Part shown: piece after piece, positions 9,746-44,793 of the stretch | How the letters are laid out: each line of letters opens with the position of its first letter | Numbering within the stretch: the stretch's first letter is position 1 | Origin: Escherichia coli | Lineage (GTDB): Bacteria > Pseudomonadota > Gammaproteobacteria > Enterobacterales > Enterobacteriaceae | Length of the DNA stretch: 64,000 nt | Strand: one strand, 5' to 3' | Assembly: GCF_003790525.1 (NCBI RefSeq) | Contig: NZ_CP033635.1 | Made by a program: the position numbers and the translations under genes | Notes under the pieces: model-generated | The model's database searches: none | What the model was told of the DNA's origin: nothing | Seen by the model: only the letters and a program-made list of their open reading frames with translations

Positions 9746-9792
9746 GATAAAAAAAACCCCCACATCATGTGGGGGAAGACAGGGATGGTGTC
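9746..9792. repeat. attL core (prophage-left copy of the cpxP-terminator repeat)
   Basis: gataaaaaaaacccccacatcatgtgggggaagacagggatggtgtc, identical over 47 bp to 44747..44793. Confidence 0.85.
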
Positions 9793-9840
9793 ACAAAAAA
9801 TCACCTAACCTACTGATATAAATGGATTTATATAAACCAC

Positions 9841-9860
9841 TGTCCACATAGCGTCCACAT
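9841..9860. promoter_or_regulatory. Putative integrase arm-type binding sites (tandem TGTCCACA repeats), left arm
   Basis: tgtccacatagcgtccacat; the same tandem motif recurs at 44646..44664 beside int. TGTCCACA is the reverse complement of the P2 Int arm consensus as recalled. Confidence 0.5.
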
Positions 9861-9891
9861 CGACCATAAATAAAGCCCCTCAACTGAGGGG

Positions 9892-11317
9892 TAATGCCGA
9901 TCAGTTAAGGATCAGTTGACCGATCCAGTGGCTGTGTAAGAATCCGGAAACGCTCACTTGTTTCCGGATTTTTTTATGCACATTGGACAGGCTCTTGATC
10001 TGGTATCCCGTTACGATTCTCTGCGTAACCCACTGACTTCTCTGGGGGATTACCTCGACCCCGAACTCATCTCTCGTTGCCTTGCCGAATCAGGTACTGT
10101 AACGCTACGCAAGCGCCGTCTTCCCCTCGAAATGATGGTCTGGTGTATTGTTGGCATGGCGCTTGAGCGTAAAGAACCTCTTCACCAGATTGTGAATCGC
10201 CTGGACATCATGCTGCCGGGCAATCGCCCCTTCGTTGCCCCCAGTGCCGTTATTCAGGCCCGCCAGCGCCTGGGAAGTGAGGCTGTCCGCCGCGTGTTCA
10301 CGAAAACAGCGCAGCTCTGGCATAACGCCACGCCGCATCCGCACTGGTGCGGCCTGACCCTGCTGGCCATCGATGGTGTGTTCTGGCGCACACCGGATAC
10401 ACCAGAGAACGATGCAGCCTTCCCCCGCCAGACACATGCCGGGAACCCGGCGCTCTACCCGCAGGTCAAAATGGTCTGCCAGATGGAACTGACCAGCCAT
10501 CTGCTGACGGCTGCAGCCTTCGGCACGATGAAGAACAGCGAAAATGAGCTTGCTGAGCAACTTATAGAACAAACCGGCGATAACACTCTGACGTTAATGG
10601 ATAAAGGTTATTACTCACTGGGACTGTTAAATGCCTGGAGCCTGGCGGGAGAACACCGCCACTGGATGATACCTCTCAGAAAGGGAGCGCAATATGAAGA
10701 GATCAGAAAACTGGGTAAAGGCGATCATCTGGTGAAGCTGAAAACCAGCCCGCAGGCACGAAAAAAGTGGCCGGGACTGGGAAATGAAGTGACAGCCCGC
10801 CTGCTGACCGTGACGCGCAAAGGAAAAGTCTGCCATCTGCTGACGTCGATGACGGACGCCATGCGCTTCCCCGGAGGAGAAATGGCGGATCTGTACAGTC
10901 ATCGCTGGGAAATCGAACTGGGATACAGGGAGATAAAACAGACGATGCAACTGAGCAGGCTGACGCTGAGAAGTAAAAAACCGGAGCTTGTGGAGCAAGA
11001 GCTGTGGGGTGTCTTACTGGCTTATAATCTGGTGAGATATCAGATGATTAAAATGGCGGAATATCTGAAAGGTTACTGGCCGAATCAACTGAGTTTCTCA
11101 GAATCATGTGGAATGGTGATGAGAATGCTGATGACATTGCAGGGCGCTTCACCGGGACGTATACCGGAGCTGATGCGCGATCTTGCAAGTATGGGACAAC
11201 TTGTGAAATTACCGACAAGAAGGGAAAGGGCCTTCCCGAGAGTGGTAAAGGAGAGGCCCTGGAAATACCCCACAGCCCCGAAAAAGAGCCAGTCAGTTGC
11301 TTAACTGACTGGCATTA
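9892..11317 (+). mobile_element. IS4 insertion sequence (1426 bp)
   Basis: Terminal inverted repeats taatgccgatcagttaagg / ccttaactgactggcatta (imperfect); flanked by a 13-bp direct duplication ctcaactgagggg at 9879..9891 and 11318..11330; single transposase ORF. Confidence 0.9.
9976..11304 (+). CDS. insG: IS4 transposase (DDE family)
   Basis: 442 aa from ATG 9976 ([40 protein letters not shown]...); ORF-track start at 9958 is a TTG extension. Confidence 0.9.
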
Positions 11318-11342
11318 CTCAACTGAGGGGCTATTTTTGTGA

Positions 11343-11561
11343 TCACATCCACATAATTTGCTGCCCTGACGGCAACGGGTGCGGCCTCACGGCGTGGACT
11401 TCTCCCGGCTTCACGATGTATCTCTGTACCGACTCATAAGTGATGAACGTGGCGCTGCAATTCACGTTCTGGCACTGGTGATAACGCTCTTTTGTCGTGT
11501 CAGTGATATAGCGGCTTGTACGCGCATGTGCGGCATGCTGGCATAAAGGACAATGAAACAT
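11343..11561 (-). CDS. ogr: Late-gene transcription activator Ogr (zinc finger)
   Basis: 72 aa, MFHCPLCQHAAHARTSRYITDTTKERYHQCQNVNCSATF...; four-Cys zinc finger; P2 Ogr length. Confidence 0.9.
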   Translation of the reverse strand: MFHCPLCQHAAHARTSRYITDTTKERYHQCQNVNCSATFITYESVQRYIVKPGEVHAVRPHPLPSGQQIMWM

Positions 11562-11642
11562 CGCGAGCACCTCTTCCGGTTTTGTTGATAGTGCCATTTT
11601 AGTTAAATTATCATTATAAAACAAAAAGATAAACAAAAGACA

Positions 11643-12806
11643 TCACTCATAATCTTCTGTTTCGTACTCCACATCAGAAAGCCTGACCTCAAGCTCTAAG
11701 GACGTCGTGAAGCCGCTATTATTCAGAAAATGTGTCACCTTAGTGACTGTCCAGTCCTGCTCGTCTATGACGCGCTTAAAGCCTGACACTCTGACCGGTG
11801 TTTCCGTGTAAATATCTGCACGACCGGTAGCCAGGATGATGGAGAACTCCGCAACGCCCCGTTGCAGTTTATCCCACTTCGCCTGAGCAGCACGCATGGC
11901 CTGTGCTTTCGTGGCATATACCGTGGTCAGGGCAAAAACGTTGTCAGCCTCACCGGCCATGTATTCACCTTCGCGCGCTTCCGGTACTTTTGGCGCTTTC
12001 TTCTGCGTGACTGGTTTCGCTTTCGGGTGCTCCAGTGCGCGCAGGTGTTTTTCTTTCTTTTTGCGTTTCAGTTTTACCTTCTGCTTTTGCGGCTTCGGGT
12101 CTTTGGTGTGAAGCCACTTTGCCGTTACGCCGGTATAGGCTCCACGGTCAGCAATCGCAAAATGATGACGGTCGCCGTCGCTGCGGGTGATGGTAATCTG
12201 CGGGATTTTTTTACCGCTGGCCGTCACCCCCTGCCCCGCTTTGAGAAACAACAGTTTTCCCATTTTTACCGACACCTCACCGCCGTTGCGTTCAGCAAGG
12301 CGGGTCAGGAATTTTGCATCAGACTCCTGCGACTGGTCGATGTGCGGGATTTTAATTCCGGCCAGTGACGGAGCGACACTGGCTTCCAGCCTGTTACGGG
12401 AGGCTATCGCCTCAACAATCGCACCGAGCGTGGTGTCATGCCAGGAGCCTTCACGGCGGGAATTGAGCGTGCCACGAAAATCTGCACTCCGGGCCCGGAT
12501 GGCGACCACATCCGGCGTGCCCCGGTGTTCTACCTCATCAACGGTGAATTTCCCTTTGCATACCAGGGCAAAACCTTTCCAGCCGATATACACCGTCAGA
12601 ACAGCGCCACGAACCGGCAGTTCGACCTGCCCGTCGGCATCGTTCAGTTCAATATCAAGCTGATCAGCCTCAAAGCCCCGGTTATCCGTCAGGGTCATGC
12701 TCATCAGACGGTCGCTGATATTGCCGGTAATATCCCTGCTGTCGAGCATCAGCATGTAATCCGGCGTCAGCGTACTGCCTGCATCAAATGTCAGCGCATC
12801 CAGCAT
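11643..12806 (-). CDS. D: Tail protein D
   Basis: 387 aa, same length and position as P2 gpD. Confidence 0.85.
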   Translation of the reverse strand: MLDALTFDAGSTLTPDYMLMLDSRDITGNISDRLMSMTLTDNRGFEADQLDIELNDADGQVELPVRGAVLTVYIGWKGFALVCKGKFTVDEVEHRGTPDVVAIRARSADFRGTLNSRREGSWHDTTLGAIVEAIASRNRLEASVAPSLAGIKIPHIDQSQESDAKFLTRLAERNGGEVSVKMGKLLFLKAGQGVTASGKKIPQITITRSDGDRHHFAIADRGAYTGVTAKWLHTKDPKPQKQKVKLKRKKKEKHLRALEHPKAKPVTQKKAPKVPEAREGEYMAGEADNVFALTTVYATKAQAMRAAQAKWDKLQRGVAEFSIILATGRADIYTETPVRVSGFKRVIDEQDWTVTKVTHFLNNSGFTTSLELEVRLSDVEYETEDYE

Positions 12807-13285
12807 TATTCCGCCCCCGTCATCCCCGTGAATCTGGTCGCCAGACTACCGGCCTTACCGATGAGCGACTCCGCCTGTTTACCGATATCGCCATAAAGCG
12901 CGGCCAGTGATTCATCAACGCGGGTGAGCGACAGCGTAAAATCAATTTTTCGGGGTGTGCCGTCTGCAAAGAAAATACTCCCTGTTTCACTCACCTTGCT
13001 GATGACATACATGCCGTAAATCATGCCTGTGCCATCCAGCAACGGCCACGCCCGGCCTTCCTCTGCCATCAGCCTGAGCGTGGTCATCGTCAGCTTGCCG
13101 CCGGTCAGTTCGGGATAAAGCACGCCGGCAAGCGTAATGTTTTCCTCACCCACACCGAGAAACTGAAAGGCATCCCGTTTACCGATACGGGAATTTGACG
13201 GCCAGCGATAATCTGATTCGCGCTGCATGGTCTGGTGTGGCAGCGTCTGGCGCATAAAAACAAACATACCTAACGCGAGCATCAT
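12806..13285 (-). CDS. U: Tail protein U
   Basis: 159 aa, P2 gpU length and position. Confidence 0.85.
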   Translation of the reverse strand: MMLALGMFVFMRQTLPHQTMQRESDYRWPSNSRIGKRDAFQFLGVGEENITLAGVLYPELTGGKLTMTTLRLMAEEGRAWPLLDGTGMIYGMYVISKVSETGSIFFADGTPRKIDFTLSLTRVDESLAALYGDIGKQAESLIGKAGSLATRFTGMTGAE

Positions 13286-13299
13286 TTTTAGTCACCTCC

Positions 13300-15747
13300 T
13301 TAACCGTCATGCATCATGCTGGCACGGGCGCGCACACGTTTATCCCGCTCGTATTTTTCGAGCGCATCCTGTAACTGGCGGTCGAGCTGTGTCCCCGGCG
13401 CAGTACCACCCGTCAGGCTGATGTGATATTCGTTTTTACTCTGGTCCACATAAGAGCGGCCAGCCGGTGCCGTGACCGGCTGATAAGCCTGATAGCCTGC
13501 ATAAGAGCTGGTCGCCGGAATATAACCACCGCTGCCATACGTGGCGGCTTGAGTTCTGGCGGCGGTCTGGTCAAGTGTGTCTGACTCTTTGTTGATAACA
13601 CCGAGTTTTTCCAGTACCCAGTCAATACCGCTGCGCAGTTTGTTGAACGCATTAAGCGGCAGCATCAGCGCGTCAGCCAGTGCCTGCCCGAACATGACCC
13701 CCGTGTCACGGCAACTGTTCAGGGAGTCCTGAGTGGCTTTGACCGGGGCAATCAGGTTTTTAAACCACTGCCACGCGGCCTGTAACTTTTCACCCAGCCA
13801 GTCAAACACCGGCTTAAGTGGCGTGAACAGTTCCCCCACCGGCGCAAATGCCACTTTCAGCCCTTCAACCACACCGCCAAAGAATGCGCTGACAGGCTCC
13901 CAGTATTTACGGATAAGCAACGCCCCGGCGACAATTGCGGCCACCACGGCCACAACCGGCCAGCTAATAACCCCGATGGCGGTCATAACAGCACTGCCAA
14001 CCGTCGTGAAGACTGCCCCCATTGCGCCTGCTGCCGCGATGATGGCATTGATGCCGGTGATAACCGGCCAGGCTACGAGGCCAATGGCACCGATGATGCC
14101 AGTCAGCGCCAGCGCGCCACCGGCAATGATGCCGATGGTTGACGCCAGTGATTTGTTTTTCTGGATCCAGCCGTCGAGTTTTAACACATACTTTGTGGTC
14201 GTCTGCGTGAGCTTACGCAGCGCGCCTTCCTGCTGGTCAAACAGGTCAGTCCCCACTGCCTCATAAGCGGACTGAAACTCTTTAAAGTCACCGCCTAGGT
14301 TGTCCTGCATGATATTTACCAGCTCGGCGGTCTTCCCGTCTGAGGATTTAAACGCAGCGGTCAGTTTGTCCAGCTTTCCGGTTGAGGCGGCAGTCATCAG
14401 CACGGCGGCGGCTGAGCTGGCCTCCTCCCCGAAAATAGTTTTCATGTATTCAGCCTGCTGGGCAGTACCGAGCCGGTTTTTCTCAAAACTGGCCTGCATT
14501 TCTTTCAGAATGGTAAATATTGGCCGGGTGTTTCCCTTGCTGTCTGAGGTTTTCACTCCAAGCTCTTTGAGTGCATCCCATGCTTTTCCCGTCGGTGCCT
14601 GCAGGCGGCTTAACACGGCACGGCTTCCCGTCCCCGCCATTGAGCCTGTGATTTTTGCATCATGCAGCGCCCCGACCATTGCGGCGGTTTCTTCAATGCT
14701 GACACCGGCATTTTTTGCCACAGGTGCGGCATAGGTCAGCGCATCGCTCATGCCGTCAAAATCGGCGGCGGTTTTGTTCATCGTCATGGAGAGAACATCC
14801 CCGATATGAGCGACCTTATCGTTTGAAAGCTGAAAGGCGGATTTCATCCCCATCAACAGGGCGGCGTTTTCTTCCATCGTGCGGCGGTTCGCCAGCGCCA
14901 TATTCAGCGTGACCGGCGTTGCCGCCTGAATGGCATCAACATCCCCACCCGCTTTCGCGATGATTATCTGTGCACCGGCCGCATCATCCGCCGAGGCGGC
15001 GGTATTGTCGCCGAGCTGGCGCGCCTGTTTGCGTAGTGCGGTCATTTCGGCGGAGTCTTTTGCCACTCCGAGCACGGCCAGCAATTCTGAGTTTTTCTGC
15101 GCAAACTCATAACCTGGCATCAGCAACTTAACTCCGGCCATCGTTCCCGCCGCCGCAATCCCCACACCGGCAGCGCCCACTGAGGCCATATTTCCGGCCA
15201 GTTCCTTGCCTGCCTGATAACGCTGTTTTACTGCGTTAAGTTTTGCCTGTTGCGCACTGACACGCGCCAGCGCGTCACGCTGACGGTTAAGCTGTGCGGT
15301 GGTTTCACTGATACGGTTTTTCAGTCCCTGCTCATCATGTGCAAGATTGCGGGTATTAATTCCCACAACGGCCAGTTCCCGCTGCTGGCGTTTAACGGAA
15401 TCCGTCAGGCGGTTATATTTCGCCTGTAAGTCCTCCGCCGCACGCTTCGCGGATTCCAGCACTTTCGCCTGAGCACGTGTCGGACGTTCGGTGTTTTTAA
15501 ACTGTGTGGCAAGGGCTTCGGCCTCCTGCCGTGCCTTTTCAAGTGCATGACCAGTCACGGCGAGCTGTGCACTGGTCTTGCGAAATCCCTCAATACGGGA
15601 TGCCTGACCGTTCAGCTCACGCAGTGATTTTTGTGTTTCCCGGATATCCCCCGACAGCGATTTGCTCGCTGTGCGGATGGATTTAAACGGGCGGGATGCC
15701 TGGTCAACAGCCCTGAGCAATACCTGTAATTTTACATTGTTACTCAT
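13300..15747 (-). CDS. T: Tail tape-measure protein T
   Basis: 815 aa, coiled-coil N-terminus and Gly/Ala-rich hydrophobic repeats; P2 gpT length. Confidence 0.9.
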   Translation of the reverse strand: MSNNVKLQVLLRAVDQASRPFKSIRTASKSLSGDIRETQKSLRELNGQASRIEGFRKTSAQLAVTGHALEKARQEAEALATQFKNTERPTRAQAKVLESAKRAAEDLQAKYNRLTDSVKRQQRELAVVGINTRNLAHDEQGLKNRISETTAQLNRQRDALARVSAQQAKLNAVKQRYQAGKELAGNMASVGAAGVGIAAAGTMAGVKLLMPGYEFAQKNSELLAVLGVAKDSAEMTALRKQARQLGDNTAASADDAAGAQIIIAKAGGDVDAIQAATPVTLNMALANRRTMEENAALLMGMKSAFQLSNDKVAHIGDVLSMTMNKTAADFDGMSDALTYAAPVAKNAGVSIEETAAMVGALHDAKITGSMAGTGSRAVLSRLQAPTGKAWDALKELGVKTSDSKGNTRPIFTILKEMQASFEKNRLGTAQQAEYMKTIFGEEASSAAAVLMTAASTGKLDKLTAAFKSSDGKTAELVNIMQDNLGGDFKEFQSAYEAVGTDLFDQQEGALRKLTQTTTKYVLKLDGWIQKNKSLASTIGIIAGGALALTGIIGAIGLVAWPVITGINAIIAAAGAMGAVFTTVGSAVMTAIGVISWPVVAVVAAIVAGALLIRKYWEPVSAFFGGVVEGLKVAFAPVGELFTPLKPVFDWLGEKLQAAWQWFKNLIAPVKATQDSLNSCRDTGVMFGQALADALMLPLNAFNKLRSGIDWVLEKLGVINKESDTLDQTAARTQAATYGSGGYIPATSSYAGYQAYQPVTAPAGRSYVDQSKNEYHISLTGGTAPGTQLDRQLQDALEKYERDKRVRARASMMHDG

Positions 15748-16167
15748 TCGTGTTTCCGCTTCGCCGGAGCGCCTTTTCGCGCCATGTGATGAGTTCGGTC
15801 AGGCTCATGGGATACAGTTCTGATGGCGGCCAGTGAAATATCACTGCCACATCCGCCATCAGGTCATCGACCGAGAGATTTTTCGGAAACGTCACTGCAC
15901 CGAGTTCGGCGACAAAAAACCGACCACCTTACCGGCCAGCGCCACAAGGTCAGGCAGTTCCAGCGCGGCGACCTCCTGTTCGGTCAGCATCGGTGCCGTC
16001 ATGCGCGGCAGCACTTTAATCAGTGCATCGACTTCGGAGTTCGCGACCGCAGCCAGACTGACACCGCGCAGCGTCCCGGCATTGGGTTTCATCAGCGTGA
16101 CCTGTTCGATAACCTGCTCACCACGCTTGACCGGATTGTCCAGGGTAATCACATTTTCTTTGTTCAT
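15740..16167 (-). CDS. E+E': Tail chaperone E+E-prime, made by programmed -1 frameshift
   Basis: Slippery heptamer T-TTT-TTG on the minus strand (plus-strand 15913..15919) near the end of E; hand translation of the -1 frame runs 57 codons to TAA at 15740..15742, overlapping the T start; total about 142 aa as in P2. Confidence 0.75.
15892..16167 (-). CDS. E: Tail chaperone E
   Basis: 91 aa, ...VVGFLSPNSVQ; P2 gpE length. Confidence 0.9.
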   Translation of the reverse strand: MNKENVITLDNPVKRGEQVIEQVTLMKPNAGTLRGVSLAAVANSEVDALIKVLPRMTAPMLTEQEVAALELPDLVALAGKVVGFLSPNSVQ

Positions 16168-16223
16168 GGTTTTCTCACTTCTGAATCAGGGTTAACCGGT
16201 CAGCCTGGCTGACCGGATGAAAA

Positions 16224-16742
16224 TCACAGGCCGATATTGCGGCGGTGTTGCTCCAGCCGGTCGACGCCGTTCACCTTCTCAATCATGTTGATGGTGTCGA
16301 TTTCGACCAGCTCCTTACCGTCCATCGTCAGCCGGAAATAGGTGCAGACCACGGAGATTTTCGACTCAGTGTCTTCTCCCTGTTTACCCTCGCCAGTGTC
16401 GATTTCTTTCTGACGTCCACGCATGACCACTTCGACGGCCACCGTTTCGCCGGTATCGTCACGCTGGTAAGAGCCTGCAAAACGAATCGGCACAGCATCC
16501 ACACCGGTTGCGGCGTAAAGCTCCCAGATAACCGAATCCGGGAAGCCACCGAGTGACCACTCCATTGACAGCGCATCGTCATCAAGGCCGAGGTCTACCG
16601 GTGCGCTGCCGTTCATCCCCGCACCGCGATAGTTTTCGAGCTTACGGGTCAGTTTTGGCAGCGTGACGGACTTTGCAACGCCCTGATAGCTGTAGCCGTT
16701 CAGAAAGACGTTCATTAACTTGAGTTTGCGCGGCATTGCCAT
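16224..16742 (-). CDS. FII: Tail tube protein FII
   Basis: 172 aa, P2 gpFII length and position. Confidence 0.9.
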   Translation of the reverse strand: MAMPRKLKLMNVFLNGYSYQGVAKSVTLPKLTRKLENYRGAGMNGSAPVDLGLDDDALSMEWSLGGFPDSVIWELYAATGVDAVPIRFAGSYQRDDTGETVAVEVVMRGRQKEIDTGEGKQGEDTESKISVVCTYFRLTMDGKELVEIDTINMIEKVNGVDRLEQHRRNIGL

Positions 16743-16754
16743 CGGTCAGGCTCC

Positions 16755-17945
16755 TTAATTGCTGTTAACCGAGGTGACCAGATTTGCCAGGTATTTATCG
16801 GTAATACGCTGGCGCAGGGTCAGGTTTTCAAGAGGAGGCACCGGGGTATAGTCGTAGTCGATATACAGTTTTCCGGCCTTAAGGGTTTCCGCATCGTTGG
16901 ATTCTTCGCTGAACCAGCAGGTCGCATCCACGATATAGCCGTTTGTTTTCAGCTCACGGAATTTGGCATTGATGCCGTCAACGATGTCGCGAATCAGCGT
17001 TGCGGTGATGGGCTTGTCCACCGCCCACATGTGCGCCTCAGCCATCGTGTCGGCCAGCACCTGCGCGGTGCGGGTGTAGTTTTCAAAGAGGAACAGCGGG
17101 TCATCAGAGCAGGTACGGTTACCCCAGAATCGGAAACCGTCGCGGCGAATCAGCGTAGTGACGCCTGACTCGTTAAGCAGGTCAGCATCGGTGCCGGACT
17201 CCTGCAAATCCCAGAATACAGATGCGCTGATGCCGGTAACACCGTTCACCCCGACATTGGACAGCGTTTTATGCCAGCCCTGCTCCTGGTCGATTCTGGC
17301 ACGCAGACCCAGCGCACGGGCGGTGGCATACGCGGTGGCGGTGGTGCTGGTGACCGTATCCCATGCGAGGAAATCCGGCCAGATGACCATCAGCTCACGC
17401 TGGCTGAAATTCTGGCGGTAGGCTTTCACCTCGGAAATGGTTTTACAGCCCCATGCGCTGATATACCCGAAAGCGCGCAGCTTCTGACAGACTGATGCCA
17501 GTGCAACAGCCACCTCTTTGGTATCCAGCCCCGGCACGCCGAGAATACGCGGTTTAACACCGGTTACCGACTCCGCCGCCAGCAGGGCTTTCAGTCCGGT
17601 GTACTGACCGTTTTCGTCGGTGGTGCCGATGATATTGGAAACGGTCTGCGCAAGTTTCGTTTCCTCGTCGTCGCCGGTGCCGTCTTCCACACGCACGACA
17701 ACGGTGACCGGTTTTGACTGGTCGGCGATGGCCTGCAACGATGCCGCCAGCGTGCCTTTTTTACCGGCCTTTGCAATTGCGCTCTGCACATTGGTAATCA
17801 GCACTGGTTTATTGAGGGGGAAGATTTCCGCATCCGCATCGCTGGCCGTGCAGACCATGCCAACAATGGCGGTGGATACGGTGGAAATGACGCGGGTGCC
17901 GTCGTTAATCTCCAGCACCTGCACGCCGTGATGATAGTCACTCAT
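16755..17945 (-). CDS. FI: Contractile tail sheath protein FI
   Basis: 396 aa, MSDYHHGVQVLEINDGTRVISTVSTAIVGMV...; P2 gpFI length. Confidence 0.9.
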   Translation of the reverse strand: MSDYHHGVQVLEINDGTRVISTVSTAIVGMVCTASDADAEIFPLNKPVLITNVQSAIAKAGKKGTLAASLQAIADQSKPVTVVVRVEDGTGDDEETKLAQTVSNIIGTTDENGQYTGLKALLAAESVTGVKPRILGVPGLDTKEVAVALASVCQKLRAFGYISAWGCKTISEVKAYRQNFSQRELMVIWPDFLAWDTVTSTTATAYATARALGLRARIDQEQGWHKTLSNVGVNGVTGISASVFWDLQESGTDADLLNESGVTTLIRRDGFRFWGNRTCSDDPLFLFENYTRTAQVLADTMAEAHMWAVDKPITATLIRDIVDGINAKFRELKTNGYIVDATCWFSEESNDAETLKAGKLYIDYDYTPVPPLENLTLRQRITDKYLANLVTSVNSN

Positions 17946-19907: not shown

Positions 19908-19908
19908 A

Positions 19909-21930: not shown

Positions 21931-21940
21931 TATTCCTCAC

Positions 21941-35966: not shown

Positions 35967-35970
35967 GATT

Positions 35971-36996
35971 ATGATTACAAATCTTGATTCAATGCCTTCT
36001 AATGAGCCTTATTTATGGGCTGATTATATTGAGATATTGGCCTTAACTAATATCGACAGGTCATTCAGTCGAGGAGACCTATATAGCACACTGCAAGCTC
36101 AACCCGAAGCAGTACTAGCTGAAACAGATGAAGCAGAAGAAGAGGGCGTTTATGATGTTGATGATGAAAATGATACGCCTGTACGCAAGAGAACAAAACG
36201 AAGTGTTAGTCGAGCATATACTGACAGAAAGTGGAGCTATGCGATAGGCTTCATACGACAACGCATTGATTTATTTGGGGATAGTTACCCTTTTACTTTA
36301 TCAGAAGACAACGATACTGTAGAGTTACGTGATATATCAGAAAAGCCACTGGAACATTTAGAAAGACTATATTTAGCTTTACTAATCTGTGCTAACATAA
36401 AATATGTCAACATAATGAGCAGAAGAGAGATAACGCGCAGTTTTGAACTAATTAGTTTACCTATTTTTGAAAGCCTAATGCCTAGCGGTAGCATAATAAA
36501 AGCATGCTGGGCTTCTGGTGGTCAAGCGGCCCCTTACACTGGAACTCTATATAATAAATTTAAGAGTATTGCTTCCGATATCCGTTGCACAGCGAACTTC
36601 AAAGAACGAGATTTCAGTCGAGGAAATAGTGGTGACGGAGGCCTTGACATAATTGCCTGGCATCCAATGGGAGATCAACGAGATGCCATCCCTATTTCTT
36701 TTGTTCAGTGTGGCTGTTCTCAAGAAGAGTGGGAAGCGAAGCAGCTTGAGGCCTCACCTGCGATGCTCTACAGTAAATTCCCCGTAGCTCACCGATGGGC
36801 AACTTATTATTTCTTACCTCAAGATCTACGATGGATAGATGGTGAGTGGGCGCATAAAAATAAGTTAGGCGATGCTATTTTTGTTGATCGCCTAAGATTA
36901 ATCAATTTAACCAGAGCATCTGATAATATTGATCACAGTCAAAATATTAGCTATCTAGATATCATCCTTGATCCTTCCAGCGCGATCGCTGCTTAA
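35971..36996 (+). CDS. Hypothetical protein, possible PD-(D/E)xK-type nuclease (cargo gene 2)
   Basis: 341 aa; starts 4 nt after gene 1 (alternative ATG 35959 overlaps its stop); contains GDGGLDIIAW ... ISFVQCGCSQEEWEAK, resembling an Mrr-type catalytic core but lacking the canonical QCK lysine. Confidence 0.6.
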   Translation: MITNLDSMPSNEPYLWADYIEILALTNIDRSFSRGDLYSTLQAQPEAVLAETDEAEEEGVYDVDDENDTPVRKRTKRSVSRAYTDRKWSYAIGFIRQRIDLFGDSYPFTLSEDNDTVELRDISEKPLEHLERLYLALLICANIKYVNIMSRREITRSFELISLPIFESLMPSGSIIKACWASGGQAAPYTGTLYNKFKSIASDIRCTANFKERDFSRGNSGDGGLDIIAWHPMGDQRDAIPISFVQCGCSQEEWEAKQLEASPAMLYSKFPVAHRWATYYFLPQDLRWIDGEWAHKNKLGDAIFVDRLRLINLTRASDNIDHSQNISYLDIILDPSSAIAA

Positions 36997-37931
36997 TCCC
37001 ATAAATCTGGAAGGTTTCTAGCAACCGCCTCAAACAATGGAGGCGGTACTGCATTACCTACCACAGTATATTTCATATTAATAGAAGCCCGTTCAGTTTC
37101 TGGGAAAATTAAATCCCCAAAACCTTGTAAAATAGCAGCCTCTCGATAGCTAAACCTACGAGCTGGTGCATCCGAAGTAAATTGCCACTTATCAGGTCCC
37201 AATTTTTCTAATGTTGGACTTATTGGATGTAGAGGCATATGTCTAGGATTTGCAACAATTGTTTTAGATATCTGATCCCAATCTTGCCTACGGTTTCGCG
37301 ATAGATAATACCAATGAAAATCGGCGTCATAAAACTCGCCAACAGGCCAAACAGGCATATGCCCAATAGCATCACGAATTGTGGAATATGGTGTCAAACC
37401 ATCACCATGTGTTGGTTTTGGAAATTTGTATGTAATACCGTAGTCCTTTCGTATTCCTACGATAAAGATTCGCTTCCTATCTTGGGATACCCCATAATGG
37501 GACGCATTCAGAATTTGCGAGCTTACTGTATAACCTGCTTCTTCGAAAACTTTGAATTGATCCTTTAATAAATGCTCAAAGTTACGCCTTACCATACCAG
37601 AGACATTCTCTACAATGAATGCTTTTGGCTTAATTTTACTCAAAGCACGGGCAAACTCTAAATATAGTGTATTAATCTTTCTATCTGCCTTCCTTGCCCC
37701 ACCTTGACTAAATCCTTGGCAAGGATAGCATCCGATGAGCAACTCAGCAGAAGGGAACGACTGGAGCCCTGAGATATCGCCCAAAATGTAGTCAGTTTCA
37801 GGATGGTTTTCTAAGTAAACGTCCCTTGCGTAAGGCAAAATATCATTTGCCATAAGCACATTGAAACCTGCGTTCAAAACTCCCGCATCAGAACCACCAC
37901 ATCCAGAAAAAAGTGAAACTACAGTTGGCAT
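36993..37931 (-). CDS. DNA cytosine-5 methyltransferase, HaeIII/HhaI-type small m5C MTase (cargo gene 3)
   Basis: 312 aa with motif I FSGCGG, motif IV PCQGFS, motif VI ENV, motif VIII QDRKR, motif X GNAVPPPL, plus YYLSRNRRQDW resembling the M.HaeIII variable region; convergent with gene 2 (4-bp overlap). Confidence 0.85.
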   Translation of the reverse strand: MPTVVSLFSGCGGSDAGVLNAGFNVLMANDILPYARDVYLENHPETDYILGDISGLQSFPSAELLIGCYPCQGFSQGGARKADRKINTLYLEFARALSKIKPKAFIVENVSGMVRRNFEHLLKDQFKVFEEAGYTVSSQILNASHYGVSQDRKRIFIVGIRKDYGITYKFPKPTHGDGLTPYSTIRDAIGHMPVWPVGEFYDADFHWYYLSRNRRQDWDQISKTIVANPRHMPLHPISPTLEKLGPDKWQFTSDAPARRFSYREAAILQGFGDLIFPETERASINMKYTVVGNAVPPPLFEAVARNLPDLWD

Positions 37932-38173: not shown

Positions 38174-38323
38174 CTATCGTCTGCGTTGTGGTGGCGCAAC
38201 TCTGGACTGACCGATATGGTTAAACCGCCCGTAATTATCCCGGACTATTTCGGCACACCCGACCAGCTCATCGGGCGTCAGATTTTCGTTGACCATAATC
38301 CGCTGTAAACGCTGAACAATAGC
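38174..38323 (-). CDS. Small hypothetical ORF downstream of the orf91-position gene
   Basis: About 49 aa from MAIVQRLQRIMVNENLTPDELVGCAEIVRDNYGRF...; start and reality uncertain. Confidence 0.3.
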   Translation of the reverse strand, partial: AIVQRLQRIMVNENLTPDELVGCAEIVRDNYGRFNHIGQSRVAPPQRRR

Positions 38324-38379
38324 CATCAGCTTGATATTTTTAGTTTTATGGTGCGGTATCTCGCCTGGTATTCTGTGCA

Positions 38380-38832
38380 TTATCCAAGCCACCCGTTTTG
38401 CTGTGCACGCTCCATCTGTTCATCTGAATAGTTCCATGCTCCATCCGTGGCAACCATTGCCCCGCCAGACATCCCCGTCTCTGGTTCATACATAACAGCA
38501 AGGCCGAGCTGATGCATAATTTCATGATTAATTCTGAATACCAGGCCACGCTCACTAAGTTCTTTCCAGTTCACAATCTCATATGCGCCTGTATTAAGCA
38601 GCTCAATACTTAGCAAGACATAATCTTCCAGCCAGTCTGACAGGTCAGTAACATCTGTTATCCGGGCTTCAACATTTCGCCCCGTATACACACCCTGCAC
38701 CCATTCATACAAAATCAACGTGTCCCCGCGCTCATAATTACGGTCATTTTTCCGGAACTCTGCACGTTTCTTTCCTTCCAGCACAAGGTCGAAATATTTT
38801 GCGTGCAGCTTTACCTCGTGAATTTTTGCCAT
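38380..38832 (-). CDS. ASCH/DUF3850-like protein at the orf91 position
   Basis: 150 aa from MAKIHEVKLHAKYFDLVLEGKKRAEFRKNDRNYERGDTLILYEW...; start overlaps the A stop by one nucleotide. Confidence 0.6.
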   Translation of the reverse strand: MAKIHEVKLHAKYFDLVLEGKKRAEFRKNDRNYERGDTLILYEWVQGVYTGRNVEARITDVTDLSDWLEDYVLLSIELLNTGAYEIVNWKELSERGLVFRINHEIMHQLGLAVMYEPETGMSGGAMVATDGAWNYSDEQMERAQQNGWLG

Positions 38833-41117
38833 TATGTCCACTCCATTACTGTTGAGAATCCCGGCCACTCATCAGCGACCGGATACGTGAATTTTTTCCC
38901 GTCATAATTTACGGTCGCGCCACGCGCCAGCGCCTCAAGCTCCCATCGCTGCGGCCTGATACCGTTCTGAGCAAGGTCAACGCGGATACGGGTAATTTGC
39001 GTTCGTTCCGACCGGGTCAGTCTGGCCGATGGCGCTATTTCATGTGGTTTTAACGGGCTTCCGTTTCTCTGCTGACGATTTGGTGTTCTCAGTTCGTGTT
39101 TTAATGCACCTCTGAGCGCCCTCACGACCTCTGGCTCATTCCATTCGATAACACCGTCATCAACCAGATTAAGCACGGCTGCGGCATGTTCATAAGGTGT
39201 GGGAGCCGGTAACGAAGTATCACTGCCGGTGAGCTTTCCACAGTTATTGACAGGACTCCGAGGCGCGGCGATGCCGCTTTTTAAAGTCAAAGGCTCAACG
39301 ACCGGAACTTTCGGCACAATGCGCCAGTCCGTCGTTCTGGTGATATGAATATGACGCGCGCCGAGATGCGGCGCGTAAATACCGACCACTCTCTCGACTT
39401 CTTCCTCGTACTCGTTAACGTCACTCGACGGGCTACGGGCAACCCTGACAGTCTGACAATCGCGCGGGACATTTGCCCCACCCTGCGCGCTGATATACAA
39501 CGCAAAATCACCACTGTCTGCGGCAGCGCGAGCAGCCTCGACGCGTTCGTCAAACTCATCAGCAATACTGACGCCGCGAGGTAATTTGCGTAGTTCACGG
39601 TAAGCCCCCATTGTCGGTAGGCCAACCGTTTTAAATTGCGGAATGCGCCACGTTGACGCCCATGCGGTAACAGCCGCGGCAGTGTCTTTCAGCGGCCTGC
39701 CGGTATCGTTATCGAGCTGACCATCCAGTGCATAGCCGTCGATGTTTTTTGAAATGTATTTCGCGATATACCCCGCAGCACCGCCCCGATTAAGGTGTTT
39801 TGCCTGAAAACGGTTTCGCGCGGCTCCTCTTTCGTCGCCATCCTCTTTGAGCGCATAGCGACGCATGATTTCGATAATCTGGTTACGCTGGCGCGAATTA
39901 CAAAAAAGCATCATATGCCAGTGCGGCGTTCCGTCGTGGTGTGGCTCGACGACACGCAAACCGTAGACCTGTAAATCATTATCCTTGAATGCCGTGCGCA
40001 TCAGGCTCCAGATACGGCAGAGATAACGCTGCGCATCCTTTGGATTAAATGCCTCATCGTTCCAGCCGTGATTAAGCTGCACGGTTTTACTTTCGCCTTT
40101 TCCTACCTGACGTGTCGGGTGATACTTTGACGGCGCGGTCAGCGTGATAAACATCCCCACATCACCCTCTGCAGCGGCGTAACGCTCAATACCGGCAATG
40201 GTGTTCATCAGCTCCATCCGGCGAATTTCAGGATTAGAAATACTGCCCATCACCTTACTGATAAGGTCGATGCGCTCGCCGGTTTCCCTGTTTTCAAGGT
40301 CACACGATTTAAGAAATTCCAGATTTGCCTGGCGGCGCGCACGCACATCACGAATGGCATGTTTACTGGCATAAGGTGAACGGTCTTTATTGACCTCCCC
40401 GACAGCAATCAGTAACGCCTCATGCCAGCGCATACGCTGGCCTTTAAGCTGTCTAATCCACCACTCATCGTTAAACAGGCGGGCAATGGCAGAATATGCC
40501 TGCCTCGTGGTCATCTGCCCTTTACGGTATTTTCTCCAGTACAGCGGGGAAATATTGAAAGCACGTGCAGCGCCAGCAACATGACCATACAGGTGAGCCT
40601 GCGCCTCATCCGTAAACAGCGATTCTTTTTCGCCATGGGCATCCACCCAGGCATCGCAGAGTTCCTCATACATCATGAAAAGCTGCGATGAGATACGGGC
40701 GGCAAACTTTTTCAGCTCCTTGTCATTCATTCCCGGCAGGCGCGCATAGTGGTCACGCTCTGCCAGAAACAGCAACGACGCGTCGGTGTTCATTTCATGG
40801 CGCTGATTCACACGCTCAATGCGCGGCCATAAACGACGCTGAAAAGTGGATGTGAGGAAATAAAACCCGTGCACCGGGCTTTTATTGCGCCGGATGTAGT
40901 CATAGCGTGAAGTAAACAGCGAGCGCAAAAAGTAAGGCAGGCGGTTAATCGTGGATAAAACACCTTGCACCTGACGCATCTCATCACGTGTAAGGGGTCT
41001 TTCGCGCCCGACGGCCTCGCGTGGCGCGTTCCATGCATAAGCACCGGTAAACATCTTACCGGTGCCTGCGGCAAATGCTGACGGAGGGACAAAACGCCCG
41101 GAGGCTTTAACGGCCAT
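38832..41117 (-). CDS. A: Replication initiation protein A (rolling-circle nicking endonuclease)
   Basis: 761 aa from MAVKASGRFVPPSAFAAGTGKMF...; P2 gpA length. Confidence 0.85.
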   Translation of the reverse strand: MAVKASGRFVPPSAFAAGTGKMFTGAYAWNAPREAVGRERPLTRDEMRQVQGVLSTINRLPYFLRSLFTSRYDYIRRNKSPVHGFYFLTSTFQRRLWPRIERVNQRHEMNTDASLLFLAERDHYARLPGMNDKELKKFAARISSQLFMMYEELCDAWVDAHGEKESLFTDEAQAHLYGHVAGAARAFNISPLYWRKYRKGQMTTRQAYSAIARLFNDEWWIRQLKGQRMRWHEALLIAVGEVNKDRSPYASKHAIRDVRARRQANLEFLKSCDLENRETGERIDLISKVMGSISNPEIRRMELMNTIAGIERYAAAEGDVGMFITLTAPSKYHPTRQVGKGESKTVQLNHGWNDEAFNPKDAQRYLCRIWSLMRTAFKDNDLQVYGLRVVEPHHDGTPHWHMMLFCNSRQRNQIIEIMRRYALKEDGDERGAARNRFQAKHLNRGGAAGYIAKYISKNIDGYALDGQLDNDTGRPLKDTAAAVTAWASTWRIPQFKTVGLPTMGAYRELRKLPRGVSIADEFDERVEAARAAADSGDFALYISAQGGANVPRDCQTVRVARSPSSDVNEYEEEVERVVGIYAPHLGARHIHITRTTDWRIVPKVPVVEPLTLKSGIAAPRSPVNNCGKLTGSDTSLPAPTPYEHAAAVLNLVDDGVIEWNEPEVVRALRGALKHELRTPNRQQRNGSPLKPHEIAPSARLTRSERTQITRIRVDLAQNGIRPQRWELEALARGATVNYDGKKFTYPVADEWPGFSTVMEWT

Positions 41118-41382
41118 ATGAGCCAAAAGCCTCTGAACAACGCCTGCTGAGTTGCTCAACCTGCGCGTTTAAATCAGCAAAAGACTTTGCGCTTCCGGTC
41201 AGAATATCGTGATGCATCAGGCCGGAAACGAGCTGGCTTAATTTCGGGTAATAACCAACCACCGCCAGCCATTCCTGACCGGCGTTTTTACCGCTTTCAG
41301 CTCTCTTTTTCTCGTGGAGAATAAACTGAAAGCTGTCACTGGTAACGACATAACGTTCGCCAATTTCAATACGAATACTCAT
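41107..41382 (-). CDS. P2 orf83-like small protein
   Basis: 91 aa ORF in the conserved early-operon position, tightly packed with neighbours. Confidence 0.6.
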   Translation of the reverse strand: MSIRIEIGERYVVTSDSFQFILHEKKRAESGKNAGQEWLAVVGYYPKLSQLVSGLMHHDILTGSAKSFADLNAQVEQLSRRCSEAFGSYGR

Positions 41383-41603
41383 GCCGTTCTCCGGTAATGT
41401 TTGTTTTTTGCTTCAAAGACTGACTGACAGGAAACACAACGCGTGGCTGACGGATAAGCCGCACGACGGGCAGCAGGTATTGGCGCGTCACACTCTTCGC
41501 AAACCAGCGCAGAAGCACCGCAATGTTTTACCCTTGCCGCGTTAATCTGGCGCTCCAGTAATTCAGCCTGTTGTTCCTGAATAAAATCTACGTTGTCCGG
41601 CAT
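41379..41603 (-). CDS. TraR/DksA-family zinc-finger protein (P2 orf82-like)
   Basis: 74 aa with four-Cys arrangement CEECDAPIP...CVSCQ. Confidence 0.65.
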   Translation of the reverse strand: MPDNVDFIQEQQAELLERQINAARVKHCGASALVCEECDAPIPAARRAAYPSATRCVSCQSVFEAKNKHYRRTA

Positions 41604-41908
41604 TACCAGTTCCTTTTGTCGTTAAGGTTTTTAAATTCATCAGCGCAATAGCTGGCGATTTCTGTCGTTAATTTCGTCAGTTCATCCACGGAGGAGATTT
41701 GCTTGTGAAACACAGCGCGTTTAACAAGTAAATTGACCACATCAGACAGGAGGTTTAATTCGTTCTGATAAATCGCGATAACAGACTCAGTTATTTCGCG
41801 TTTTTCTTTATCAAGACCAAGTTGAATAAGAGACAAATCGCCATTTTTCATAACGGCGATTTTTAGGGCGTTATTCAGTAATACAACTGAACGAGAACAG
41901 GACATCAA
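41603..41908 (-). CDS. P2 orf81-like small protein
   Basis: 101 aa ORF, positional. Confidence 0.55.
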
Positions 41909-42129
41909 AGCACCTCCCCGCGAGACAATCCGATATTGTGAAATTTTTCCGACTCCTGACTGAGCAGCTCGACTATCTCCACGCGGGATAACTCCGCCTT
42001 TGTGATGTGGCGAATCATGGCGTCAAGATGAGAAGAAAAGCGCGTCGCTGCGTCGGCCTGTGCTTCGGTTCTGGCCTGTTGCAGCAGTAATGCGTATTTA
42101 CCGCACTGATTTTCAGAAACTGTATGCAT
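41905..42129 (-). CDS. P2 orf80-like small protein
   Basis: 74 aa ORF, positional. Confidence 0.5.
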
Positions 42130-42192
42130 GACTTTCTCCAGGCAAAAAGAAGCCCCGCACGATTAAGTGCGTTAAAAACTCTGGTTAATTAC

Positions 42193-42693
42193 TTAATGCA
42201 GATATTGCTCTGGTTTTACCGACGTCAGAATTGTCGGTGCATACTCAAACAGGCTGAATAATTCACGTAATGCACGGAATAAAGCATCACGCCAGTAACA
42301 TGATTCTTCATTAATTCGCCAGTATGGCTGGTTGAATTCTTTTTCAGTCAGTCGTGCGTGCATAAATAAAGTGCGACGCTGACTGACTGTTAAAAAACTA
42401 ATATATGCATACTCACTTGCGCCAACCTGACGGCGTTTTGAGAATGCGCCACGCAATTCATCAATTGCACAAACCAGTCGTTCACGTTCGACGTCGTTCA
42501 TTTCTTCAAAACGCATCGTTGCGTGACGCTGTTTTAACTGTGCATGAAAGCAAACCGTTAGCCGTTCGCGCTCCATCATCTGATTATAATAATCACATGT
42601 ATCCTGCCAGCGAGGGACGGCAAGATGCTTGCCAATTATCCGGCGCATAGCTGCTGGCTGTTTTTCAACGAGATTAAGCGTCATCACTGTCAT
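42193..42693 (-). CDS. B: Replication protein B (helicase loader)
   Basis: 166 aa, P2 gpB length and position. Confidence 0.8.
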   Translation of the reverse strand: MTVMTLNLVEKQPAAMRRIIGKHLAVPRWQDTCDYYNQMMERERLTVCFHAQLKQRHATMRFEEMNDVERERLVCAIDELRGAFSKRRQVGASEYAYISFLTVSQRRTLFMHARLTEKEFNQPYWRINEESCYWRDALFRALRELFSLFEYAPTILTSVKPEQYLH

Positions 42694-42887
42694 TTCCAGC
42701 CCCTCCGGCTTTTCAGAAAGGTCAGAGCCTTTTTTAACGGACTCTGTTTTTTGGTGCGGATAATGATTCCCTTACGCCCCTTACCGTGGGTGATGGTGAA
42801 GTCAATCGCCCTGGGGCTTTCGTTACGCAGTAACTGAGCAATACAACGCGGTTCACTCATAATCACAACCCCATCCACAAAAGCCAT
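42690..42887 (-). CDS. P2 orf78-like small protein
   Basis: 65 aa ORF between cox and B. Confidence 0.5.
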   Translation of the reverse strand: MAFVDGVVIMSEPRCIAQLLRNESPRAIDFTITHGKGRKGIIIRTKKQSPLKKALTFLKSRRGWK

Positions 42888-43135
42888 GCATCACGCTGTT
42901 CAACTGGTCGGTTATAAAACGCCTCTCGTACAGCGCGATTAAACTCTGGAATGAAAACCCACTTCTCACCGACACGAGCGTTCGGCTTACTTGGATCACG
43001 AAGCTCAATAACTGGCAACTTATTCTCTTTTACCATCTTGACTACAGCCGTTTCTGGCTTACCAAGTAACTCTGCAAACTTAACCGTATGTACCGCATCA
43101 ATCGGGTACTGAATCACATAGTCATTGACTTCCAT
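42863..43135 (-). CDS. cox: Cox-like excisionase / early-promoter repressor
   Basis: 90 aa; first gene of the early operon, divergent from C; P2 Cox is about 91 aa. Confidence 0.7.
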   Translation of the reverse strand: MEVNDYVIQYPIDAVHTVKFAELLGKPETAVVKMVKENKLPVIELRDPSKPNARVGEKWVFIPEFNRAVREAFYNRPVEQRDAWLLWMGL

Positions 43136-43287
43136 TGATTAGCCCTTTTTGCTTTCGTGTTACCCTTATTAGATCCAGTCCCTTCTAGGTCGCACCTGTC
43201 CTTTCTAGGGACTGGCTAACACACTCAAAAGGTCACCAATACACAACCTTTTGACGGGAATATAAGTCACCAATAGGTTACTGTCAA
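43136..43287. promoter_or_regulatory. Immunity switch region (divergent C and cox promoters with operator repeats)
   Basis: Intergenic region between divergent C and cox; direct repeats ccagtcccttctagg (43175..43189) and cctgtcctttctaggg (43195..43210). Confidence 0.6.
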
Positions 43288-43581
43288 ATGCAGACATTCG
43301 AAAAACTGAAAGCGATTAGGAAAGCAGAAGGCTTAACACAGGCGAAATTCAGCGAAATTAGCGGGATAGCTCTAGGAACAGTCAAAAATTACGAAAGTGG
43401 GCATAAAGACCCTGGTCTCAGCATCGTTATGCGAGTCACAAATACGCCTTTATTTAAAAAATATACGCTCTGGTTAATGACTGGTGATACGTCACCACAA
43501 GCTGGTCAGATCGCGCCGGCTCTCGCACACATTGGGCAAAAACCAACAGAATCAGACCACTCCGAAAAACAGACTGGTTAA
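43288..43581 (+). CDS. C: Immunity repressor C (HTH)
   Basis: 97 aa, MQTFEKLKAIRKAEGLTQAKFSEISGIALGTVKNYESG...; HTH_XRE-like. Confidence 0.8.
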   Translation: MQTFEKLKAIRKAEGLTQAKFSEISGIALGTVKNYESGHKDPGLSIVMRVTNTPLFKKYTLWLMTGDTSPQAGQIAPALAHIGQKPTESDHSEKQTG

Positions 43582-43650
43582 CACTCTATAAACATTACAT
43601 TTTCACCATTTGTTACCAAGATGGTGAATACAGCGTCAGAGGGCTTTCTT

Positions 43651-44631
43651 ATGTCAATTAAGAAGCTCGATGATGGACGCTATGAAGTGGACATTAGACC
43701 TCGCGGTCGCGACGGAAAACGCATCCGCAGGAAATTTGAAAGAAAAGCTGAGGCTGTAGCATTTGAGCGATACACAATCGCCTACGCCAGCCAGAAAGAA
43801 TGGGCAGGTCAGCGAGCAGATCGCAGAACTTTGAGTGAGTTGCTGAACATCTGGTGGAAATATCACGGGCAAAACCACGAGCATGGAACAAAAGAGTTTA
43901 ATCATCTGCTCAAAACCATCAGCGGCATAGGTGATATACCAGTGAGCCGGATGAGCAAAAGAGCTTTGATGGATTATCGTTCCATGCGACTACGTGATGG
44001 TATCAGTGCCGCAACGATAAACCGTGACATGTACCGATTATCCGGCATGTTCACAAAATTAATTCAATTGGATGAATTTTCCGGGCAACACCCAATTCAC
44101 GGACTGCCGCCACTGGCGGAGGCCAACCCTGAAATGACGTTCCTGGAAAAAGCAGAAATCGAAAAACTGTTAAATGTTTTGGATGGTGATGACTTACTTG
44201 TCGCACTTTTATGTCTGAGCACTGGAGGAAGATGGACGGAAGTTGCCACGCTAAAACCAGCACAGATTACAAATTGCAGGGTTACCTTCCTGAAAACCAA
44301 AAACGGTAAAAAGCGAACCGTGCCGATTTCTGAGGAACTGGAGAAAAAAGTTAAAGAGGAGGCCAGCGCTAAATTATTCAAAGTTGATTATGAGAAGTTT
44401 TGCGGGATTTTACGCAGAGTGAAGCCAGATATACCACCCAATCAGGCAACCCACATCCTGCGGCATACATTCGCAAGCCATTTCATGATGAATGGGGGCA
44501 ATATAATCGCACTGCAACAGATTCTGGGACATGCGAGCATTCAGCAGACGATGGCCTATGCGCACCTTGCGCCTGACTACCTGCAAAATGCCGTCGCGCT
44601 GAATCCTCTAAAAGGCGGAGTGACGTTATAA
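43651..44631 (+). CDS. int: Tyrosine integrase
   Basis: 326 aa from MSIKKLDDGRYEVDIRPRGRDGKRIRRKF...; C-terminal catalytic region ...HILRHTFASHFMMNGGNIIALQQILGHASIQQTMAYAHL; ORF-track start at 43621 is a 10-codon extension. Confidence 0.85.
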   Translation: MSIKKLDDGRYEVDIRPRGRDGKRIRRKFERKAEAVAFERYTIAYASQKEWAGQRADRRTLSELLNIWWKYHGQNHEHGTKEFNHLLKTISGIGDIPVSRMSKRALMDYRSMRLRDGISAATINRDMYRLSGMFTKLIQLDEFSGQHPIHGLPPLAEANPEMTFLEKAEIEKLLNVLDGDDLLVALLCLSTGGRWTEVATLKPAQITNCRVTFLKTKNGKKRTVPISEELEKKVKEEASAKLFKVDYEKFCGILRRVKPDIPPNQATHILRHTFASHFMMNGGNIIALQQILGHASIQQTMAYAHLAPDYLQNAVALNPLKGGVTL

Positions 44632-44645
44632 ATTTCCCTTCTGAG

Positions 44646-44664
44646 TGTCCACATAGTGTCCACA
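44646..44664. promoter_or_regulatory. Putative integrase arm-type binding sites, right arm
   Basis: tgtccacatagtgtccaca, matching the left-arm copy at 9841..9860. Confidence 0.5.
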
Positions 44665-44746
44665 CTCTCAGAACTTTGTAGCCCTTCCAGTCCCTTATAG
44701 GTTTTCTTAAGTTACTGTTTTCTTACGGAAACCGATGTAAGTGATT

Positions 44747-44793
44747 GATAAAAAAAACCCCCACATCATGTGGGGGAAGACAGGGATGGTGTC
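44747..44793. repeat. attR core, identical to attL; carries the cpxP/CpxQ terminator hairpin
   Basis: 47-bp identity with 9746..9792; contains cccccacat-c-atgtggggg next to an A/T run. Confidence 0.85.

Follow-up and report, generated by a model that had tools for sequence, protein, structure and literature searches.

The 64,000-nucleotide stretch of Escherichia coli DNA analyzed here (contig NZ_CP033635.1 of assembly GCF_003790525.1; hereafter, the window) contains a P2-like prophage of 35,048 bp at positions 9746 to 44793, between fieF and cpxP. That this region is an intact prophage of the Wphi type within the genus Peduovirus is, at the least, nearly certain. The fuller assignment, to a temperate Peduovirus myovirus that is genetically intact, has the immunity and integration type of Wphi, and belongs to the species-level lineage of phage P2_SIAC10, is very probable. 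A preliminary description made from the letters alone had proposed a complete P2-like prophage here, and the coordinates that it gave proved to be exact.

Boundaries and attachment site

A perfect 47-bp direct repeat (GATAAAAAAAACCCCCACATCATGTGGGGGAAGACAGGGATGGTGTC) was found at both ends of the prophage (9746 to 9792 and 44747 to 44793). When the flanks were joined with one copy of the repeat, the product and the unoccupied intergenic regions between cpxP and fieF were 100% identical, and at least 80% of this joined empty-site sequence was present in one piece in 4,593 of 5,426 complete E. coli genomes. The perfect repeat together with the exact empty-site match indicates that the 35,048 bp between the flanks are a precisely integrated element. 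The chromosome closely resembles that of E. coli SMS-3-5 (NC_010498.1), with 2 base differences in the 43 kb compared; the core genes from glpK to fieF form the left flank, and cpxP, cpxRA, sodA, the rha operons, and frv form the right flank. The attP sequence rebuilt from the two prophage ends matched that of Wphi without gaps at 489 of 497 positions, including the paired GTCCACAT arm repeats which, judged from the annotation of the P2 attP, are probably arm-type sites for Int. The insertion site is the Wphi attB.

The cpxP 3' untranslated region (UTR) ends in the cpxP terminator, which the 47-bp att core overlaps (window positions 44747 to 44816, with a partial copy at 9746 to 9792), and the terminator scan scored the same cpxP-terminator hairpin in both core copies. 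Integration restores the sequence beside cpxP exactly, which resembles the case of phages whose insertion sites are the 3' ends of tRNA or tmRNA genes. The CpxQ small RNA derives from the cpxP 3' UTR (PMC4817254). Rfam gave a sub-threshold match to Hrs1 at 44750 to 44822, and the Rfam and tRNA scans gave no match within the prophage.

Comparison with P2_SIAC10, Wphi, and P2

The prophage carries a copy of the insertion sequence IS4, and a full-length comparison was made after deletion of IS4 and one copy of its 13-bp target duplication. The resulting element was 33,562 bp, the length of phage P2_SIAC10 (NC_070904 / OU784549), from which it differed by 201 substitutions and no indels (99.4% identity). 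The left and right parts of the prophage were 99.4 to 99.5% identical to NC_070904, a level that makes chance resemblance impossible. P2_SIAC10 was recovered from the uninduced supernatant of a natural isolate and forms plaques on E. coli C (Rousset et al. 2022, PMC9122126). It can be described as this prophage minus IS4, the att, immunity, cos, cargo, and tail-fiber regions being identical or nearly so, with zero differences counted in these regions. The 201 substitutions (146 synonymous, 45 nonsynonymous, and 10 intergenic) fell into three patches, comprising U-T-E-FII (12806 to 16742), O (about 31000 to 31500), and the start of A through B (40500 to 42700). Such patchy and mostly synonymous differences indicate recombination of blocks among functional P2-like phages rather than decay.

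Alignment to P2 and its relatives had been suggested in the preliminary description as a check on its reading. We used a blastn-based estimate of intergenomic similarity, which is not VIRIDIC itself, together with the ICTV species rule, nucleotide identity of 95% or more along the entire genome. Similarity to P2_SIAC10 was 0.994 without IS4 and 0.974 with it, above the same-species threshold of 0.95. Similarity to Wphi (NC_005056) was about 0.94 without IS4, slightly below this threshold and borderline for the species Peduovirus Wphi, and similarity to P2 (NC_001895) was about 0.76, placing the element outside the species Peduovirus P2. Placement in the genus is supported by the P2 gene order, the position of cos beside the portal gene, the presence of ogr and predicted Ogr-dependent late promoters, and the predicted programmed -1 frameshift that would give E and E+E'. 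Membership of the Wphi immunity and integration group is supported by C, Cox, Int, the operators, and the 47-bp core at cpxP-fieF.

With Wphi, a phage of E. coli W, the prophage shares Int, C, and Cox at 99 to 100% identity, the att core and attP arms, the gp98/gp96/Mth cargo, and the gp44 cargo. Wphi differs in lacking orf30, in its H, G, and T proteins (67, 87, and 91% identical, respectively), and in its orf91 region. With P2 it shares gene order, 31 proteins at 92 to 100% identity, and identical cos, frameshift-site, and pP/pO sequences, whereas P2 has its own int/C/cox module and integration site, old/tin/fun(Z) cargo, and a different H tip. The preliminary description had held that only three cargo positions and IS4 set the element apart from P2. 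This view could not be sustained, since Int, C, and Cox are of the Wphi type and only 44 to 52% identical to those of P2, the att site lies at cpxP-fieF, H and G are only 67% and 90% identical to their P2 counterparts, and the orf91 region differs and includes an extra gene for a protein of 68 amino acids (aa). The element and P2 are heteroimmune, and their attachment sites are not the same.

Gene content and conserved sites

When P2 proteins were compared with the window by tblastn, 39 of 42 were matched in P2 order, and all non-cargo P2 genes were present and open. Thirty-five of the proteins aligned nearly end to end without gaps at 84 to 100% identity. The exceptions were int, C, and cox (43 to 51% identity), H (67%, with gaps), and orf91 (first 75 residues only), while fun(Z), tin, and old of P2 had no match in the window. 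All of the genes annotated in the SMS-3-5 prophage translated in the window without internal stops, and the number of PGAP pseudogenes was zero. Frameshifts or truncations in essential genes, which the preliminary description had named as the finding that would overturn its reading, were absent both from the tblastn alignments with all P2 proteins and from the ungapped whole-genome comparison with P2_SIAC10. Its account of intact frames, cos, an E/E' frameshift site, and a nested spanin was likewise borne out by alignment to P2. The features are listed in Table 1.

The ends of the NC_070904 and Wphi records fall at the position of cos. The region of the E/E' slippery site (GGTTTTTTG) was identical to that of P2 at 61 of 61 positions, and no stop interrupts the -1 frame as far as 15740, which would yield a 142-aa E+E' fusion one residue different from that of P2. 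The activator site of the late promoter pV (24354 to 24434) matched P2 at 77 of 81 positions. The pF promoter matched P2 poorly, yet it showed no differences from P2_SIAC10.

Table 1. Coordinates of features of the prophage in the window
Feature	Position	Strand	Remarks
att core copy, fieF side (P-arm end)	9746-9792		47 bp; identical to Wphi attP core
P-arm direct repeats (GTCCACAT x2), putative Int arm-type sites	9840-9861		from sequence; kept in Wphi attP alignment
ogr/F-operon terminator hairpin, att side of IS4	9876-9891	-	rebuilt by target duplication
IS4, 1426 bp	9892-11317	+	transposase ORF 9958-11304 intact; terminal inverted repeats
ogr, late-gene activator	11343-11561	-	72/72 aa identical to P2 Ogr
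F operon tail genes	11643-17945	-	97-100% aa identity to P2, full length, gap-free
D	11643-12806	-	F operon
U	12806-13285	-	F operon
T (tape-measure protein)	13300-15747	-	F operon
E+E'	15740-16167	-	slippery TTTTTTG at 15913-15919
E	15892-16167	-	F operon
FII	16224-16742	-	F operon
FI	16755-17945	-	F operon
Cargo, Z/fun position, 299 aa, Wphi gp44 type	18265-19164	-	99.7% to Wphi gp44; GC 0.39
V operon, baseplate and tail-fiber genes	19380-24356	-	P2 protein comparison
G	19380-19907	-	90% identical to P2
H tail fiber	19909-21930	-	100% to P2_SIAC10; 67% to P2 and Wphi
I	21941-22471	-	V operon
J	22464-23372	-	V operon
W	23377-23724	-	V operon
V	23721-24356	-	V operon
Cargo, orf30 position, 261-aa predicted membrane protein	24440-25225	+	84% to P2 orf30; phrog_2407 (unknown function)
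O operon (S, R, lysC, lysB, lysA, K, Y, X, L, M, N, O)	25297-31497	-	92-100% aa identity to P2, full length
lysC (nested)	26172-26462	-	spans lysB and R; lipobox LCAGC
Divergent late promoters pP/pO and activator-binding site	31529-31654		126/126 identical to P2 3010-3135
P, large terminase	31671-33443	+	99.8% identical to P2
Q, portal	33443-34477	+	99.1% identical to P2
cos, 19-nt cohesive-end sequence	34647-34665	-	exact reverse complement of P2 cosL/cosR
Cargo, old/tin position, three genes	34893-37931		identical to Wphi gp98, gp96, Mth
ParB-N-domain protein (gp98)	34893-35966	+	
Winged-helix and PD-(D/E)xK-fold protein (gp96-like)	35959-36996	+	
C5 DNA methyltransferase (Mth)	36993-37931	-	
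Hypothetical protein, 68 aa (extra gene, orf91 region)	38174-38380	-	
DUF3850/ASCH protein, N-terminal half orf91-like	38380-38832	-	
A, rolling-circle replication initiator, 761 aa	38832-41117	-	97.8% identical to P2
ori nick region inside A	~39226-39289		64/64 identical to P2 over aligned stretch
Early operon (orf83, orf82, orf81, orf80, B, orf78-like, cox)	41107-43135	-	
B	42193-42693	-	early operon
cox	42863-43135	-	Cox 100% to Wphi, 45% to P2
Pe/Pc transcriptional switch, Wphi-type operators	43128-43303		175/176 identical to Wphi 24040-24215; identical to P2_SIAC10
C immunity repressor	43288-43581	+	100% to Wphi, 46% to P2
int, integrase	43651-44631	+	99.4% to Wphi, 52% to P2
att core copy, cpxP side	44747-44793		regenerates cpxP terminator at cpxP 3' UTR end

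IS4 insertion and the case against intactness

The insertion, labeled by PGAP as an IS4 family transposase, had the expected properties of IS4, namely, a length of about 1.4 kb, terminal inverted repeats, a transposase of the DDE type, and duplication of roughly one helix turn of target DNA. The terminal inverted repeats were 18 to 19 nt (19-nt arms 89% complementary), and the 13-bp target duplication (CTCAACTGAGGGG) was found at 9879 to 9891 and 11318 to 11330. IS4 has entered the rho-independent ogr/F-operon terminator within its loop and stem, and the insertion point follows the ogr stop codon at a distance of 25 nt and is 31 nt beyond the P-arm repeats; the uninterrupted version of this terminator is present in P2_SIAC10. 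The element itself showed nothing unusual relative to known IS4; what stands out is only where it sits, in a prophage terminator.

Several observations weigh against an intact prophage. IS4 together with the duplication adds 1,439 bp, and after excision the genome would measure 35,001 bp, which exceeds P2 by 4.2% and is above every sampled E. coli Peduovirus genome (29.2 to 33.8 kb, with one of 34.8 kb); at this size packaging may be impaired. IS4 was absent from all phage records. The IS4 junction was found in 13 complete genomes, in 10 of which the prophage was full length, and in all of them it occupied the same chromosomal site with near-identical flanks, a distribution that fits vertical inheritance only. 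Ongoing decay is indicated in sister genomes: in two carriers (GN03139 and GN03551) an IS3-family element splits the Z/fun cargo gene, and two carriers are without the ogr-to-FI segment. Finally, 22 residues were absent from P2_SIAC10, P2, and Wphi, with T accounting for 11, U for 3, K for 2, and other places for 6, and the U-T-E-FII allele was at most 97.5% identical to that of any sequenced phage, raising the possibility of a silent defect.

The strongest alternative built on these observations is that the prophage is complete on paper and yet locked or defective through IS4, being inherited only vertically and possibly persisting as a P4 helper and carrier of defense genes. Two routes to this state can be envisaged: the 35.0-kb genome may exceed what is packaged efficiently into the P2 T=7 head, or loss of the terminator may disturb late expression. 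The size, the lack of IS4 in any phage record, the single chromosomal site of the 13 carriers, and the insertions and deletions accumulating in relatives are all in keeping with it. However, genes, Int arm repeats, and att core sequences are all left whole by IS4, and on the ogr side the lost terminator is replaced by the IS4 end, which forms a hairpin with an 11-bp stem followed by TCTTTTT and was terminator-like in the terminator scan. A Klebsiella P2-like record of 35.1 kb also exists, with a capsid gene only 78% identical to that of the prophage. Viable P2 insertion mutants with genomes enlarged by about 4% are known, such as P2 sig5, which carries an IS2 insertion. On balance, we consider inactivation through IS4 unlikely.

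A second alternative is that, despite its open frames, the prophage has been made cryptic by a missense or regulatory mutation that escaped detection. The 22 residues that set it apart from three viable phages, most of them in T, U, and K, and the tail patch with no phage-record match closer than 97.5% could be read in this way. Most of the unique changes were nevertheless conservative (A to T, V, or S; K-R exchange; I to V), and the ratio of synonymous to nonsynonymous changes in T was 58:17. The att, immunity, cos, and late-promoter regions showed no differences from P2_SIAC10. Only two bases were private to the window relative to SMS-3-5: one falls between genes, clear of the terminator stem, and the other produces S222R in A, at a variable residue (His in P2 and Wphi, Ser in P2_SIAC10, and Gly in 186). 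A hidden mutation of this kind therefore appears quite improbable, and a genetically intact prophage remains the preferred interpretation.

The same base of the terminator, with the same 13-bp duplication, has been hit by IS4 in three settings (window positions 9876 to 9891 and 11318 to 11345). The first is the SMS-3-5 group of 13 genomes. The second is strain R8, with IS4 in the same orientation, where the ogr-D flank was 3.7% diverged and IS4 had 8 differences. The third is strain 23CRST038, with IS4 in the opposite orientation and 6 differences in IS4; 4 further genomes share its blast pattern. At four unrelated loci (finO, matP-ompA, lldP, and ldr), IS4 was also found at terminator-like hairpins with 12- to 14-bp duplications; the count of other loci examined at which it lies in such hairpins was five. 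The ogr/F-operon terminator of Wphi-type prophages is a recurrent IS4 target, with at least three hits, apparently independent, in both orientations. IS4 follows an AAA-N20-TTT target rule. Insertions in this terminator could make prophages oversized and immobilize them.

Immunity, induction, and proposed life cycle

The preliminary description had suggested that the element may still be inducible or competent as a helper. The first of these terms is misleading with respect to the SOS response. By tblastn, no homologue of 186 Tum, CII, CI, Apl, or Orf97 was found (best E values of 0.04 or worse for Tum, CII, and the 186-type CI), and a pattern scan found no LexA box (CTGT-N8-ACAG) anywhere in the window. 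Phage 186 (Eganvirus) shares with the prophage its overall late-gene architecture and a similar A protein. It differs in having CI, CII, Apl, and a LexA-controlled Tum, and induction of 186 requires Tum (PMC7708051). The C protein of the prophage is instead a 97-aa helix-turn-helix protein of the Wphi type, and neither Tum nor the CI/CII switch characteristic of 186-type SOS-inducible phages is present. Given the lack of both a Tum homologue and a LexA box, SOS induction is not expected. P2 has also been reported to be without an SOS-inducible phenotype (PMC7708051), and P2_SIAC10 itself came from an uninduced supernatant. Two other P2-like phages were recovered from mitomycin-treated cultures in the study of Rousset et al. 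(PMC9122126), which does not show that they were induced, and the idea that the prophage is SOS inducible like 186 is hardly credible. From its gene content, low-level spontaneous release or derepression by a satellite would be expected instead.

A life cycle can be proposed for the element. Insertion of the phage between cpxP and fieF, at the 47-bp attB of Wphi, would be the work of its tyrosine integrase, and, as described in the P2 and Wphi literature, the C repressor would keep the early promoter Pe off, while Cox would repress Pc, direct excision, and activate the P4 late promoter PLL. With this switch uncoupled from the SOS response, lysogeny would be left either spontaneously or upon derepression by a P4-type satellite. 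Cox and Int would then excise the prophage, A and B would replicate it by a rolling-circle mechanism from the ori inside gene A, Ogr would turn on the four late operons, and the terminase (P and M) would cut at cos. On the basis of sequence, the prophage can likely help a P4-type satellite; this is plausible because the late genes, ogr, and cox are intact, the pP/pO region equals that of P2, pV is close to it (77 of 81), and pF equals that of P2_SIAC10. We lean, less firmly, toward the view that it can still yield infectious particles. The intact genes and sites and the viability of P2_SIAC10 are the grounds for both expectations.

Cargo genes

All three moron positions, orf30, Z/fun, and old/tin, were occupied. 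The 299-aa protein of the gp44 type at the Z/fun position matched phrog_7195, a family of unknown function, and had no match in Pfam, NCBIfam, PADLOC, or the Protein Data Bank (PDB). For the orf30-like protein, sequence searches of the same four resources gave only a PHROG of unknown function.

The old/tin position contains three genes. The ParB-N-like N terminus of gp98 aligned with the opening ~150 positions of the PD-Lambda-5_A profiles in PADLOC and with a portion of the candidate PDC-M38A profile. The gp96-like protein is a member of a large, widespread family (776 clusters at 50% identity) for which there is no Pfam model; the protein itself had no Pfam match, and its AlphaFold2 model (pLDDT of 91.6) gave no significant Foldseek match against the PDB. 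The family has the conserved motif GDGGLD...QCxC...K, and its profile weakly matched MspJI (E value of 0.18). The motif resembles the D...QxK motif of Mrr/MspJI-type enzymes. The same trio was found adjacent in three distant metagenomic or genomic contigs (homologues 25 to 32% identical), one of which also has Vsr. A DNA methyltransferase adjoins a protein of predicted nuclease fold in a conserved neighborhood, as in type II-like restriction-modification systems. We tentatively suggest, at somewhat less than even odds, that 34893 to 37931 may encode an uncharacterized three-component defense system of the restriction-modification type in which the ParB-N protein is an accessory. This exact trio is listed as a P2 hotspot arrangement by Rousset et al. 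in Table S5A, and no test of it was found in that study (PMC9122126). We also considered whether the ParB-N module corresponds to the "putative plasmid partitioning system" of those authors; this was rejected, as their Table S5A gives StbA/Plasmid_stab_B for that entry.

Neighboring features

Outside the prophage, Rfam matches above the gathering score were obtained for naRNA4 (CssrE) and ES036 (CssrF), at 47549 to 47626 and 7503 to 7544. A carbohydrate porin gene (57685 to 59079, minus strand) located between frvA and rhaM lies in a region with a lower G+C content of 0.43 to 0.47 and may be an accessory insertion.

Significance

The prophage is an ordinary, already cataloged element of the Wphi/P2_SIAC10 type, since it lies in a published genome lineage, its twin free of the insertion sequence is available as a sequenced isolate, and the cargo arrangement is likewise on record. 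As a standard Peduovirus prophage it adds little new biology. Its practical use lies in the exact boundaries, the att core, and the gene map, and the analysis corrects both the view of the element as P2 plus cargo and the expectation of SOS induction. The size of 35.0 kb with IS4 stands out as one concrete uncertainty. Three side leads also emerge, namely, the cargo that resembles a restriction-modification system, the hot spot for IS4, and the location of the att site in the region that produces CpxQ.

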